Translations under genes and position numbers: made by a program | DNA from: a virus | Lineage: Duplodnaviria > Heunggongvirae > Uroviricota > Caudoviricetes | Length of the DNA: 8,229 bases | IMG/VR virus record: IMGVR_UViG_2645727970_000010 | Coordinates: 1 to 8,229 of that record | Direction: 5' to 3' (one strand) | Shown here: one piece after another, positions 3,870 to 8,229 of the stretch | Layout of the letters: every line of letters starts with the position of its first letter | Numbering within the stretch: position 1 is the stretch's first letter | The notes under the pieces: model-generated | Told to the model about the DNA's origin: nothing | Databases searched by the model: none | Seen by the model: only the letters and a program-made list of their open reading frames with translations

Positions 3870-4277
3870 TTATTTTATTGATTTATTTTTACGCGCTTTA
3901 AGCATTTCTTCGAAGAGTTTGTTGAAGTTTTCTACTCTTGCGCGCATTTCAGACAGCAAGGCTTCCTGCTCGGAAGATGGAAGAGCATCGAATAATTCGA
4001 TCAATTCTTTGTGGTTGGGAGTTAGCTCTGTTTCCACATGAAGTTCTTGTGCCGGCACTGGTGCCTTGTCTTCGTCACCAAACATTAGCCATGTAGGTGA
4101 GCACTTCAGAGCATCCGCTAAAGCAAACAATCGTTTTCCGACTGGCTGGGTTTCGTCTCTTTCCCATTGTGAAATTGTGACGTGAGCAACTCCAGCGAGG
4201 CGCGCAGCTTCTCGTTGTGTTAAGCGTAATTCTTTTCGTCGCGCCAGAACTCGCTGGCCTAGGGTTCTTGTATCCAT
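3870..4277 (-). CDS. Prophage repressor, XRE-family HTH (CI/RacR-like), 135 aa, no S24 peptidase domain
   Basis: HTH signature LRLTQREAARLAGVAHVTISQWERDETQP. Divergent from a Cro-like gene with palindromic operators in the 77-bp spacer. No obvious SD; a TAGAAT -10 sits 9 nt before the ATG, suggesting a near-leaderless transcript. Too short and without the Ser/Lys motifs of an autocleaving repressor. Confidence 0.85.
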   Translation of the reverse strand: MDTRTLGQRVLARRKELRLTQREAARLAGVAHVTISQWERDETQPVGKRLFALADALKCSPTWLMFGDEDKAPVPAQELHVETELTPNHKELIELFDALPSSEQEALLSEMRARVENFNKLFEEMLKARKNKSIK

Positions 4278-4343: not shown

Positions 4344-4357
4344 AAGAGGGGGCTTTG

Positions 4358-4585
4358 ATGCTTAAAGCTGACGCAATTACTTTTTTTGGCAGCAAAACAA
4401 AGCTTGCCAATGCCGCAGGAGTGAGACTGGCAAGTGTTGCTGCTTGGGGGATACTGGTTCCTGAAGGTCGCGCGATGCGTCTACAGGAGGCATCTGGCGG
4501 GGAGCTTCAGTATGATCCCAAAGTTTATGACGAATATCGTAAGACGAAGCGGGCGGGGCGGTTGAACAATGAAAATCACTCCTGA
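4358..4585 (+). CDS. Cro-like / YdaS-family small HTH regulator (75 aa)
   Basis: ATG at 4358 with AGAGGGGG SD 5 nt upstream. Sequence AITFFGSKTKLANAAGVRLASVAAWGILVPEGRAMRLQEASGGEL resembles the YdaS/Cro pattern. Position is right for the first rightward gene. Confidence 0.7.
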   Translation: MLKADAITFFGSKTKLANAAGVRLASVAAWGILVPEGRAMRLQEASGGELQYDPKVYDEYRKTKRAGRLNNENHS

Positions 4586-6751: not shown

Positions 6752-7339
6752 ATGGGACTGGATGATTTCGGCCTTAGTATCTTAGCCGGACTTCTTGCAA
6801 ACAGACTTGATTTCTCAAAACCGAAGGGCACCTCAGCTCAAATGAATGAAGTTATACCAGATGTGATTGAAGAACCAGACAAATTCTCGCTAAGTGCAAA
6901 TTTGCCAAAAAAATTCAAGACATTCGACGTATGGAGTGATTTGGACAAATTGCTAAAGGTTGTGAAAGAACCCAAAATATCTGTTTTGATAGAGGAGCAA
7001 CCATCAACGTACTATCGGCTCCCTAGCTTGGTTCTGGAATCTCAAATCACAGGGGAATGGTATGTTTTCCCGCGAGGCCGCATGAGTTTTGAGGGCAATG
7101 GAGGTGGCATACAGAACGCAGAAGTAATCTTCAATCAGTTGAAAGAAGAAAATGTTCCGGTGGGAGTATGGGTAATCGATCAAGCTCTTCTCGACCGCCT
7201 CGATAACGGACAAGAATGTTGGCCAACCATACGATTACAAATAGTACCATTCTTGGCCGCACCATCGAGCGAATACCCATGGTTCGAAATACAACGAAAC
7301 GTTGCAAAACTCACAGAATTCCATTTGACTAATGATTAA
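6752..7339 (+). CDS. Hypothetical protein (195 aa), orphan cargo gene in an AT-richer segment
   Basis: Clean ORF, ATG at 6752 with GAGGAG SD 10 nt upstream. Composition is AT-richer than the flanking prophage genes by eye (not computed). No Walker, HEPN, HTH or hydrophobic signature found. Confidence 0.7.
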   Translation: MGLDDFGLSILAGLLANRLDFSKPKGTSAQMNEVIPDVIEEPDKFSLSANLPKKFKTFDVWSDLDKLLKVVKEPKISVLIEEQPSTYYRLPSLVLESQITGEWYVFPRGRMSFEGNGGGIQNAEVIFNQLKEENVPVGVWVIDQALLDRLDNGQECWPTIRLQIVPFLAAPSSEYPWFEIQRNVAKLTEFHLTND

Positions 7340-7620
7340 TAGTGAGCCCTAACAGGATAATGGCACACTGGATATGACCACCTAAGCAGAGGCAGTACAG
7401 GGGTAATAAACTATGAACTCCTGCTTTTCGCTCAAAGCGGACTAGAAGGTTAGCTTGTGTCGGACTTTGCGTATTAAAAGAAGTGCTGGTGGTGACTAGT
7501 GGTTGAGCCCCATTTCCACAGAAAAAATCAGAGAAACTATACCCAATAGTTGCATTGAATCACTGACGAGACAGCCTCATATTCATCAGGACTGGTGTAC
7601 ATCCAATACAGGAGGTTGTG

Positions 7621-7710
7621 GTGCTGGTTCTCAAATGTGCGCTGGCTATTACGGCTGTAATGGCGATTTATTGTCTTGCTATTGTTCTTATGGATCGCCT
7701 TTCTGACTGA
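7621..7710 (+). CDS. Candidate small hydrophobic peptide (29 aa), GTG start
   Basis: Perfect AGGAGG SD (7610-7615), 5-nt spacer, GTG at 7621. Translation (M)LVLKCALAITAVMAIYCLAIVLMDRLSD is one predicted membrane helix. Overlaps the frame-0 track ORF 7503..7706 (TTG start, Cys/Gly-rich). Candidate -35 TTGAAT / -10 CATATT at 7555-7583. Very uncertain. Confidence 0.25.
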   Translation: MLVLKCALAITAVMAIYCLAIVLMDRLSD

Positions 7711-7764
7711 TTTCATATTGGCGAGGTAACGGGAGTTAAGTAGAATGGCTGCGGGTGCTTGAGG

Positions 7765-7800
7765 CTATCTGCCTCAGGCATGAACACCAACGGCAGATAG
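7765..7800. other. Hairpin with 9-bp perfect stem (ctatctgcc / ggcagatag) and 18-nt loop
   Basis: Read directly. A second small hairpin gcgtc-ctgcaa-gacgc (7824-7839) is flanked by direct repeats TTAACATTA (7814-7822, 7840-7848). Could be IS terminus, transposase terminator or the small-ORF transcript 3' structure. Confidence 0.35.
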
Positions 7801-7862
7801 AGAAAAGCCCCAGTTAACATTACGCGTCCTGCAAGACGCTTAACATTAATCTGAGGCCAATT

Positions 7863-8229
7863 TCATGCTAGACACATGTAGGTTAGCCTCTTACGTGCCG
7901 AAAGGCAAGGAGATGTATGGGTCCACCACATATTGCAATTTTTATTCTCTTTTAAAATATATTCCACGGGCGTCATTAGTGCGAGCGCCTTGTGGGGTCT
8001 TTTGCTGTTATACAGCACCAGATATTCCGCCAGCTTCTGGTTAAATAGCGCCAGATCTTCAAAGAGTAAAATCTCATTAAATTCAATAAACTGCTCTCTT
8101 AACGTCCGGTTAAAACGTTCACAGATAGCGTTCATTTTTGGCGTGTAGGGATAGGTCCAGAGGTGTTTGATAGCGGCTTCCTGCAGCGTTTTGTCGAAGT
8201 TTCCCAGGAACTCTTTTCCGTTATCTGTG
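7863..8229 (-). CDS. DDE transposase, rve/integrase-core type (IS481-family-like), C-terminal part; N-terminus beyond window end
   Basis: Hand translation upstream of the track ORF gives ...TDNGKEFLGNFDKTLQEAAIKHLWTYPYTPKMNAICERFNRTLREQF...YNSKRPHKALALMTPVEY, carrying the second D (TDNGKEF) and the E (CERFNRTL) of the DDE triad plus the conserved YNxxRPHxxLxxxTP tail. Frame is open to position 8229. Confidence 0.8.
   Translation of the reverse strand, partial: TDNGKEFLGNFDKTLQEAAIKHLWTYPYTPKMNAICERFNRTLREQFIEFNEILLFEDLALFNQKLAEYLVLYNSKRPHKALALMTPVEYILKENKNCNMWWTHTSPCLSARKRLTYMCLA

Follow-up and report, generated by a model that had tools for sequence, protein, structure and literature searches.

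Organization of the locus

The window (the whole stretch of DNA analysed, 8,229 nucleotides of a Caudoviricetes virus record) carries, towards its right end, a candidate gene of 29 codons at 7621-7710, the promoter and 5' leader of a hokD/mokD/sokD type I toxin-antitoxin locus at 7718-7913 and, from 7914 on, one end of an IS481-family element. A 67-codon open reading frame at 7503-7706, also on the plus strand, overlaps the first of these in another frame; it has been judged not to be a gene.

The 29-codon gene is preceded by the Shine-Dalgarno (SD) sequence AGGAGG at 7610-7615, which can be read directly. After a 5-nt spacer comes the GTG start at 7621, and the frame closes with the TGA at 7708-7710, all on the plus strand and all at the positions claimed in an earlier note on this DNA. 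Its predicted product, MLVLKCALAITAVMAIYCLAIVLMDRLSD, has a GRAVY value of 1.74 and a single uninterrupted hydrophobic stretch, with Lys5 near the N-terminus, an acidic/polar C-terminal tail (M-D/E-R-x-S-D) and a net charge of about -0.5. The peptide gave no match in Pfam, NCBIfam (E <= 1), PHROGs or PADLOC, so that it is its composition which points to a membrane function. An exact-sequence look-up and an exhaustive HMMER search returned nothing but the peptide, under the names 'hypothetical' or 'membrane protein', and of the records examined a single one has the ORF in its RefSeq annotation. It was not described in the literature found with the peptide strings, with hokD plus small protein or with icsP plus hok, nor in the hokW-sokW paper (PMC8621323) or the Pas-sRNA preprint. 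A decayed hok duplicate was considered and rejected: BLASTP gave no alignment of the 29-aa peptide to HokD, and there is no second Rfam hok/sok match at E <= 1. A lipoprotein signal peptide was likewise rejected by eye, neither Cys being preceded by a lipobox.

Selection on the two overlapping frames

The earlier note had held that which frame is translated, if either, could not be decided from sequence. This is true of a single sequence, but it no longer holds once some 200 homologous loci are compared (90 unique alleles for ORF intactness); that comparison of each frame across homologous loci, which the note itself had proposed as a check, clearly favours the 29-codon frame. Much of the allele sample was gathered with a search pattern designed in this same frame, and the statistics were therefore repeated on the half of the gene that is free of the pattern and on lineages found by BLAST.

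Variable sites in the 29-codon frame are distributed over codon positions 1, 2 and 3 as 12, 3 and 20 (chi-square p = 0.002) and, outside the search pattern, as 9, 1 and 13 (p = 0.008), while dN/dS is 0.14-0.19 overall and 0.10-0.26 in BLAST-ascertained pairs between the deepest lineages. Second codon positions are nearly frozen (pi 0.001, versus 0.099 at the third), the hydrophobic positions are under strong purifying selection, and two motifs, Y-C-L and M-[DE]-R-x-S-D, are conserved; in the 3' half of the ORF synonymous sites vary somewhat less. Of the 90 unique alleles, 87 have the frame intact. Its start codon is ATG instead of GTG in the copy on the Shigella pINV plasmid, and AGGAG is kept in all lineages, including pINV and the class that lacks hok, the only exception being two frameshifted alleles with AGAAAG. 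Taken together, these substitution patterns show a frame that has evolved under purifying selection, with its SD and start codon kept in three genomic settings. The SD-GTG hydrophobic peptide to which the earlier note drew attention has thus become a real gene candidate, one that by its codon-position pattern and dN/dS is not accounted for by chance.

The behaviour of the 67-codon frame is quite different. The Cys/Gly/Tyr-rich ORF with its TTG start is present at 7503-7706 as described before; its dN/dS is 4.6-5.8 over the overlap with the 29-codon frame and 2.1-6.8 in deep pairs, and, counted from the first start, it has anything from 11 to 102 codons depending on the allele. The conserved TGA with which it ends exists because of the Ser-Asp codons in the 29-codon frame. 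Nearly all sites 5' of 7621 are variable, with no periodicity; within this flank 7425-7510 evolves at the synonymous rate, and the non-coding segments 7511-7550 and 7586-7620 are more conserved than synonymous sites. The earlier note had likened the ORF to the core of a modified peptide, though it saw no modification enzymes nearby. The latter observation stands, the neighbours being a hypothetical protein, hokD and rem; the likeness does not, given a dN/dS of 2-7, a start that is not conserved and this same lack of enzymes. As far as substitution patterns can tell, the 67-codon ORF is not a gene but a shifted reading of the 29-codon one, extended into upstream DNA that evolves neutrally, and some of the GenBank 'hypothetical protein' records for it are annotation artefacts. 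By the same evidence only the 29-codon member of the pair is a conserved prophage gene candidate, unannotated and unnamed. Here the question of overlapping frames has been settled by substitution patterns alone.

Putative promoters and RNA features of the small gene

A putative sigma-70 promoter for the small gene has been placed at 7555-7583 on the plus strand, with TTGAAT (7555-7560) and CATATT (7578-7583) 17 nt apart (8/12). The pair is kept at this position in 49 of the 61 unique alleles, with a variable spacer sequence, and the upstream sequence families, which differ among loci, converge at about 7550-7570, just 5' of it. TTGAAT is not found in every allele, the whole promoter element has been lost from the E. 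coli B copy, and a stricter promoter scan did not report the pair. In the only two frameshifted alleles CATATT has become TGTATT, besides the change in their SD.

Near the end of the ORF, CUUUCUG (7699-7705, plus strand) is complementary to the SD region CAGGAGG (7609-7615) and forms with it the outermost helix of the RNAalifold consensus. This pairing is kept in 97.7% of cells, versus at most 72% when it is slid; all the changes seen are wobbles on one side, none of them compensated on the other, and shuffled controls reach equal values. It is possible, on this predicted fold, that the SD is sequestered by long-range pairing with the 3' end of the 29-codon ORF.

On the minus strand, a weak and allele-dependent promoter-like site for an RNA antisense to the small gene lies at 7710-7739 (TTAACT, 18 nt, TGAAAT). 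Its -10 hexamer is TAAAAT in other alleles, the window's allele being without the A at position 2. The site reaches 9/12 with a proper -10 in only 21 of the 61 unique alleles, and the hok-less class has another -35 region. No conserved antisense RNA to the small gene was found, the minus-strand consensus folds having an energy of about zero.

The whole of 7340-7862 had been described earlier as a structured region. From 7753 onward this is borne out; for 7410-7752 it is not, with fold z-scores of -0.31, +0.44 and +0.54 (either strand), and an Rfam search gave no match upstream of 7753. A conserved RNA structure or sRNA in 7410-7752 was accordingly rejected, z being near 0 on both strands and 7425-7510 behaving as synonymous sites do. 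A terminator-like hairpin at 7645-7664 was also set aside, its arms being unpaired in the hok-less class as judged by eye.

The hokD/mokD/sokD leader

The hokD/mokD promoter (7718-7746, plus strand; TTGGCG, 17 nt, TAGAAT) begins 7 nt past the stop codon of the small gene. No other promoter-like site was reported between 7200 and 8000; this one is found in 51 of the 61 alleles and lies 6 nt 5' of the Rfam-defined start of the hok mRNA at 7753. From there to 7913 extends the 5' leader of the hokD/mokD mRNA, with the tac stem, ucb, the mok SD, dcb and the hok SD, on a stretch that also encodes the antisense Sok RNA. The corresponding Rfam model, RF01794 'sok', is matched over its full length (1-157) with 111.9 bits and E = 1.7e-25, the gathering score being 59; the last 6 bases of the match (7914-7919) are in fact IS sequence, since the leader is cut by the IS at 7913/7914. 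Its minimum free energy is -56.6 kcal/mol (z = -4.30), and none of 200 shuffles was as stable.

The 7-bp inverted repeat reported in the earlier note, GCCTCAG at 7771-7777 and CTGAGGC at 7851-7857, is present and, with the hairpins from 7753 on, exceeds chance. Its left arm is the ucb (anti-SD) box GCCUCAG and its right arm, CUGAGGC, includes the mok Shine-Dalgarno GAGG. Each of the 54 unique leaders retains the full set of 7 pairs; four of the pairs vary one-sidedly, always to G-U wobbles that are valid only in plus-strand RNA. These hairpins and the repeat, which the note had listed without recognizing them, are the leader of the hokD/mokD/sokD type I toxin-antitoxin locus. The pairing of ucb with the mok SD in the closed hok mRNA has been described (PMC9841398), and hokW-sokW, a hokD-type locus of a lambdoid prophage, aids lysis and phage release (PMC8621323).

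The mokD frame starts with the ATG at 7865, and its first 16 codons, MLDTCRLASYVPKGKE, occupy 7865-7912. The ORF that can be read from 7865 to 8044 turns into IS sequence after codon 16, a break that is visible against intact loci, where the mokD frame continues in frame into hokD. In phage HannyBb the extended frame is annotated as 'MokW-like host killing protein' and ends where hokD ends in the near-identical NCTC10537 locus. In uninterrupted loci hokD itself (WP_000813254.1) lies about 10 nt beyond the leader, or about 60 nt past 7862. Since 7913 is followed by IS sequence, the window holds no Hok coding sequence; in the source replicon this is intact, on the far side of the IS. The -35 of the Sok promoter would coincide with the IS junction, and the window does not reach the 3' fbi element.

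The IS481-family insertion

About 50 nt past the right edge of the region described in the earlier note (7862), and missed there, an IS481-family element has inserted at 7914. The window holds only its end (7914-8229); the element, of about 1.1 kb, runs on beyond, with its transposase on the minus strand. The identical record NZ_CP090612.1 is annotated with an IS481 family transposase (WP_001178385.1) at this place and with an intact hokD beyond it. The IS ends are TGT...ACA with imperfect inverted repeats, and the target duplication is the 5-bp GGAGA, the left copy of which (7909-7913) is also the hokD Shine-Dalgarno. In pDCE7-1 the left junction reads directly as ..CAAGGAGA|TGTATGGG.. and the right one as ..CTTACACA|GGAGAAGCAGGCTATG. 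Promoter, leader and mok start are thereby separated from the hokD coding sequence by about 1.1 kb. Given this distance and the position of the IS at the hokD SD, the arrangement suggests that the toxin gene is most likely silenced.

Distribution and genomic settings

Of 5426 complete E. coli genomes, 1951 (36%) carry the small gene, each with 1-3 copies and with roughly 2,200 E. coli copies altogether; it also occurs in E. albertii, E. ruysiae and Shigella. A tblastn search of phage records gave four Escherichia phages (mEp460_ev081, Tritos, Evi and HannyBb) and no others, and a scan of 185,579 species genomes with a degenerate pattern gave only chance matches outside Escherichia and Shigella. 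Judging from these searches, the peptide is an orphan confined to the two genera.

In 155 loci the small gene adjoins a hok leader. In another 28, with a QueH/DUF1971 context, it is kept without hok, and it is only there that a terminator is seen. In Shigella pINV it lies upstream of icsP, next to a decayed hok leader. The sequence common to all of these contexts amounts to only about 170 nt.

Interpretation

The explanation that fits these observations best, with a probability that we put at roughly 0.75, is that two separable prophage modules lie side by side -- the small gene, and the hokD/mokD/sokD promoter and leader -- and that the 67-codon ORF is an artefact of reading the first of them in the wrong frame. 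The small gene module would consist of the putative weak promoter, the SD and the ORF. We infer that the peptide is translated and inserted into the inner membrane as the single helix predicted for it. Our best guess is that it serves lambdoid prophages as a membrane-active accessory peptide, expressed from its own promoter and, on induction, by read-through from the early right operon as well, and that its action at the membrane would resemble that of Hok or accompany it. Its translation may be damped as the SD pairs with the 3' terminus of the ORF. In the second module, the ucb/mok-SD pairing that forms the 7-bp repeat would hold the full-length hok mRNA untranslatable. A toxin role for the peptide is plausible but hypothetical.

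A stronger version of that role is a good deal less probable, namely that a new type I system, complete in itself, has the 29-aa peptide as its toxin. A cis-antisense RNA, starting at about 7703 and running leftwards from a minus-strand promoter set back to back with the hok promoter, would repress the peptide mRNA at the level of translation, and loss of this RNA would leave the peptide free to depolarize the inner membrane. The size of the peptide, its hydrophobicity (GRAVY 1.7-2.1, similar to TisB, ShoB and Ibs) and its strong SD are typical of type I toxins, and the gene adjoins another such toxin. The 9/12 promoter-like site stands in the right place and orientation in 21 of the 61 alleles; the pairing between SD and ORF end is reminiscent of the locking of toxin mRNAs; and the somewhat lowered synonymous variation in the 3' half of the ORF also counts in its favour. 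However, the window's allele and the hok-less class both have a degraded antisense promoter, the minus strand shows neither a conserved structure nor a conserved terminator, and the stretch shared by all contexts is confined to some 170 nt. In addition, the peptide is slightly acidic, where type I toxins are cationic, and it neither matches a toxin family model nor aligns with HokD by BLASTP.

With much the same low odds, the peptide may represent an undescribed type I toxin family, or a partner or modulator of Hok in a two-peptide membrane-attack module with hokD/sokD. Were this so, the promoters of the module would stand back to back, lambdoid prophages would be using it to time lysis or for exclusion, and the Shigella virulence plasmid would have kept one copy, 5' of icsP.

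Less probable again is that neither frame is translated and that the conservation reflects a role of the DNA or RNA itself, such as that of an sRNA or of an upstream regulatory or UP-like stretch serving the hok promoter. The ORF does end 7 nt 5' of the hok -35 hexamer, and the flanking segments 7511-7550 and 7586-7620, too, are more conserved than synonymous sites. Yet neither a three-base periodicity of substitutions nor a dN/dS of 0.1-0.26 is expected of a non-coding element; the conserved block is intact where hok is absent; the start codon switches from GTG to ATG and is not lost; and upstream of 7753 the fold is no better than shuffled and Rfam has no match. The least credible proposal, that the 67-codon ORF yields a true product such as the precursor of a modified or disulfide-rich peptide, can draw on a frame that is open throughout the overlap in all alleles, on the many GenBank records that enter it as a 'hypothetical protein' and on a weak PHROG match (phrog_24899, E = 0.019), but with its elevated dN/dS, its shifting first start and length, a TTG that no SD precedes, an N-terminal half in neutral-rate DNA that is wholly replaced in other lineages and no modification enzymes near it, it is refuted as far as the comparative data reach.

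In the preferred reading of two adjacent modules, a strongly conserved gene for a predicted membrane peptide is carried by about one third of complete E. coli genomes and is mostly unannotated in the RefSeq records examined. Laboratory strains of E. coli B carry it too, for example NEBExpress (NZ_CP053599.1, 2843822-2843911), as do several active lambdoid phages and those pINV plasmids of Shigella that were examined, where icsP, just downstream, encodes a virulence protease. It offers a concrete and cheap target for work on small proteins, and public ribosome profiling of E. coli B may already hold the answer. The fixed distance of 7 nt to the hokD promoter raises the question whether prophages are pairing two membrane-active peptides.

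Comparison with known systems

The stretch from 7718 to 7913 is a member of the group that includes hok/sok of plasmid R1 and the chromosomal or prophage loci hokD (relF) and hokW-sokW, with the promoter, leader, tac, the ucb/mok-SD pair, the mok start and the hok SD. It differs from hok/sok in that the IS splits it at the hokD SD, leaving the toxin coding sequence and fbi outside the window, and the hok/mok/sok architecture as described has no counterpart of the upstream 29-codon gene.

With TisB, IbsC, ShoB, LdrD, ZorO and DinQ the 29-aa peptide shares its size class, a hydrophobic helix, a comparable GRAVY, a strong SD, a possible SD-masking pairing and a location on mobile elements; unlike them, it has no sequence relation to the group and a slightly negative net charge. 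Unlike those of E. coli type I toxins, moreover, the mRNA of the small gene is not unusually structured, and no antisense or divergent sRNA was seen to be conserved with it. MgtS, AcrZ, KdpF and CydX are small membrane proteins of one helix that modulate larger ones. The peptide is like these in having about 30 residues, nearly all of them in the predicted transmembrane helix, and a short polar/acidic tail, but differs in being encoded by prophages and pINV, with no partner membrane protein evident in the conserved neighbourhood. The morons of lambdoid prophages are self-contained promoter-gene units lying between phage genes. Like them, the small gene forms a compact unit of about 170 nt, bordered by a putative promoter and a stop codon, and sits between differing neighbours in the replication-to-Q region; it differs from the morons in that its promoter is a predicted one.

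Coding frame of the overlapping ORFs

The segment at 7340-7862 is the gap between the stop codon of a 195-aa orphan ORF (6752-7339, + strand) and a minus-strand ORF (7863-8135) that was listed mechanically. Direct reading of the sequence located every element listed in the earlier note: on the plus strand, a Shine-Dalgarno AGGAGG (7610-7615) 5 nt before the GTG at 7621 that opens a 29-codon ORF ending in TGA at 7708-7710, and an overlapping 67-aa Cys/Gly-rich ORF with a TTG start (7503-7706); and a 7-bp inverted repeat, GCCTCAG at 7771-7777 being complementary to CTGAGGC at 7851-7857. Which of the two frames is translated had been thought undecidable from sequence, but a comparison of some 200 homologous loci picks the 29-aa frame, the codon-position pattern and dN/dS both favoring it. 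The homologs were collected by BLASTN, which is independent of any frame, and by scanning genome, viral and metagenome collections with a degenerate pattern that left the N-terminal half of the 29-aa ORF unconstrained; together these routes yielded the ~200 loci and 90 unique 380-nt alleles.

Variable sites in 7621-7710 fall 12/3/20 at the first, second and third codon positions of the 29-aa frame (chi-square p = 0.002), and 9/1/13 in the pattern-free N-terminal half (p = 0.008); nucleotide diversity is 0.001 at second vs 0.099 at third positions. Pairwise dN/dS averages 0.19 (0.14 in that half), as against 4.8 (5.8) when the same bases are read in the 67-aa frame. Four lineages are the deepest: that of the window and three that BLASTN recovered, namely the Shigella virulence plasmid (pINV), the hok-less 'strain 2-1' type and the HannyBb/E. 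coli B type. They form six pairs, five of which have a dN/dS of 0.10-0.26 in the 29-aa frame vs 2.1-6.8 in the 67-aa frame; the sixth has just 8 differences and is uninformative for dN/dS. Of the 90 unique alleles, 87 keep the 29-aa frame intact, with GTG as its start codon, or ATG in pINV. Loss of the Shine-Dalgarno (AGGAGG to AGAAAG) together with alteration of a conserved CATATT box occurs only in two frameshifted alleles, which have the look of co-decay in a dead gene. These comparisons demonstrate selection on the 29-aa coding frame and conservation of its translation signals, and at the level of sequence it is the coding one.

The 67-aa ORF is ruled out as a gene by its dN/dS, its variable start and length and the neutral evolution upstream, and is a by-product. 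Its start is not conserved, the length from the first start ranging from 11 to 102 codons among alleles, and its upstream half is swapped for unrelated sequence in other lineages. Nearly all sites upstream of 7621 vary, with no periodicity, and 7425-7510 evolves at the synonymous rate (pi 0.11 vs 0.10). Its conserved TGA arises from TCT GAY, which encodes Ser-Asp in the real frame. In the main allele class, 7511-7550 has a pi of 0.026, about 4x below that of synonymous sites (0.10), with 0.11 and 0.08 in its left and right flanks; this block is missing from other lineages, and its minus strand carries a TATAGT box (7541 to 7536) as well as a weak AT-rich hairpin and a T-run.

The 29-aa peptide and its gene

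The peptide, MLVLKCALAITAVMAIYCLAIVLMDRLSD, has a GRAVY of 1.74 and is predicted to form a single hydrophobic helix, with Lys5 and a tail of polar residues. The four deep lineages share K5, Y17-C18-L19, M24, [D/E]25, R26, S28 and D29, except that the HannyBb/E. coli B lineage has R26H. Searches of Pfam, NCBIfam, PHROGs and PADLOC gave no match to the peptide, and it does not align with HokD. HMMER, run exhaustively against 1.84 billion representatives, returned only 9 clusters, all 83-100% identical; these are the peptide itself, bearing spurious N-terminal extensions. Some GenBank submitters label it 'hypothetical' or 'membrane protein'; in RefSeq it is unannotated in all examined records but one. 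The exception is the E. coli B copy, whose ORF lies under an overlapping annotation for a fused DUF977 protein. None of the papers searched gives the sequence of the peptide or describes it. That the ORF is an undescribed small membrane-protein gene is a well-supported reading.

Only about 170 nt (~7550-7720) are common to all lineages. This shared block opens with a TTGAAT-17-CATATT pair (7555-7583, + strand), which 49 of 61 unique alleles share, the spacer sequence being variable; it is probably a weak promoter of the small gene. In other alleles (L033, L034, L036, L051, L066, L123 and L157; window-equivalent 7553-7569) TTGAAT is replaced to give a perfect 17-bp palindrome, TCTCATCAATGATGAGA, a three-base patch between the putative -35 and -10 hexamers converting TTGAATCAATGATGAGA to it; this might serve as an operator, or it might be a quasi-palindrome that template switching has corrected. 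A deletion in E. coli B took the whole TTGAAT/CATATT element, leaving the Shine-Dalgarno, the GTG and all 29 codons intact. In the laboratory strain NEBExpress (L223, NZ_CP053599.1, 1480-1602) it joins the 3' portion of DUF977 to the small-gene leader, so that the last residues of the annotated DUF977 protein come from the small ORF read out of frame. The Shine-Dalgarno region (7609-7615) can also form 7 bp with CUUUCUG at 7699-7705, paired in 97.7% of cells (slid controls, at most 72%); its variation is one-sided wobble only, no different from shuffles, and the pairing is a possible, unproven control element.

The hok leader and the insertion sequence

The region had also been described as structured. 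This holds for its right-hand part, 7753-7912, which folds at -56.6 kcal/mol (z = -4.30, with 0 of 200 shuffles equally stable), but not for 7410-7752, on either strand, or 7588-7752, which show no excess stability over shuffles (z = -0.31, +0.54 and +0.44). The hairpins noted there are the leader of a hokD/mokD/sokD locus severed by an insertion sequence: Rfam RF01794 (hok/sok leader) matches 7753-7919 over its full length (111.9 bits, gathering score 59, E = 1.7e-25). This part is known biology in an IS-disrupted copy. A promoter, TTGGCG-17-TAGAAT (7718-7746, + strand), lies 6 nt before the modelled hok mRNA 5' end. The inverted repeat is the upstream complementary box (ucb) paired with the mok Shine-Dalgarno, a pairing that holds full-length hok mRNA closed and untranslatable (PMC9841398); 3' of it, at 7865, is a mok-type ATG. 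The 54 unique leaders retain all seven pairs; at four of these pairs changes are confined to one side and are always C-to-U opposite G or A-to-G opposite U, so that pairing is preserved in the plus-strand RNA and not in its complement.

In related E. coli chromosomes the leader continues uninterrupted into hokD (WP_000813254.1), which starts ~60 nt past the region, with rem and the Q region beyond it. In the window an IS481-family element with TGT...ACA ends starts at 7914, leaving the promoter, leader and 16 mok codons to its left and hokD to its right. It duplicated GGAGA, the hokD Shine-Dalgarno itself; with this as its target, a copy is retained on both sides, and an intact hokD coding sequence with its own GGAGA lies ~1.1 kb rightwards, outside the window. 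The hokD gene is probably silenced in this split locus, and the -35 of a putative sok promoter would coincide with the IS junction. The minus-strand transposase frame has no stop codon within the element; it crosses the terminal repeat and extends 16 codons into the hok leader, to a TGA read from 7865-7863 (-), out to which the RefSeq CDS is annotated.

Genomic setting and distribution

The window comes from a Qin-like lambdoid prophage and represents its immunity and replication region, with a DicA-like repressor gene (3870-4277, -), dicC (4355-4585, +) and YdaT-like, replication and DUF977 genes. The 195-aa product, annotated just as hypothetical protein WP_024242771.1, matched nothing significantly when Pfam, NCBIfam, PHROGs and PADLOC were searched. 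Downstream of a ydfA-like gene lie sub-threshold Rfam matches to DicF (2685-2733, -; 38.8 bits, gathering score 48) and STnc100 (2478-2687, -; 38.1 bits, gathering score 47), which suggest a diverged dicBF-type operon. Positions 7340-7862 are 100% identical to E. coli plasmid pDCE7-1 (NZ_CP090612.1).

The small gene occurs, in 1-3 copies, in 1951 of 5426 complete E. coli genomes, as well as in E. albertii, E. ruysiae, Shigella and four deposited Escherichia phages; it was not found in other genera among 185,579 species genomes scanned. (A 3.3-kb contig of a metagenome-assembled genome binned as Collinsella sp., JAIHTM010000277.1, locus L009, carries it and is probably a binning contaminant.) It lies directly upstream of a hokD-type leader in 155 loci (in the window 7 nt separate its stop codon from the hok -35 hexamer) and without hok, in a QueH/DUF1971 context, in 28. 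In the latter context a short hairpin beside it, flanked by A- and T-runs, is, as read by eye, a possible bidirectional terminator. Many hokD-type loci in turn have no small gene, 4366 genomes matching a leader-containing query vs 1951 for the ORF core. The two modules are thus separable both ways, though usually adjacent, which establishes the autonomy of the small gene from hok. In Shigella/EIEC pINV, icsP lies ~290 nt downstream of it, and the small gene is followed by a hok promoter and 5' leader that are decayed but still recognizable. More than 120 of these virulence plasmids carry a 76%-identical copy with an ATG start (in S. flexneri pINV NZ_CP020337.1, locus L005, at ~1590-1760, with icsP at 1977), in DNA treated as non-coding regulatory.

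Possible role of the peptide

The 29-aa ORF is presumably translated and its product inserted into the inner membrane, and the small gene is easy to test. That the peptide is a type I toxin seems unlikely, the antitoxin being the missing piece. A promoter-like site (9/12) that could start an antisense RNA near 7703 is present in 21 of 61 alleles, but the window's allele and the hok-less class have degraded versions of it, and no structural conservation was found on the minus strand. Unlike TisB, ShoB, Ibs and Ldr, moreover, the peptide is slightly acidic. Our best guess is rather that it is a membrane-acting prophage accessory, produced both from a weak promoter of its own and, upon induction, by read-through of the early operon. 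Its proposed membrane role would parallel that of the related hokW-sokW locus, which has been demonstrated to aid lysis and phage release (PMC8621323).
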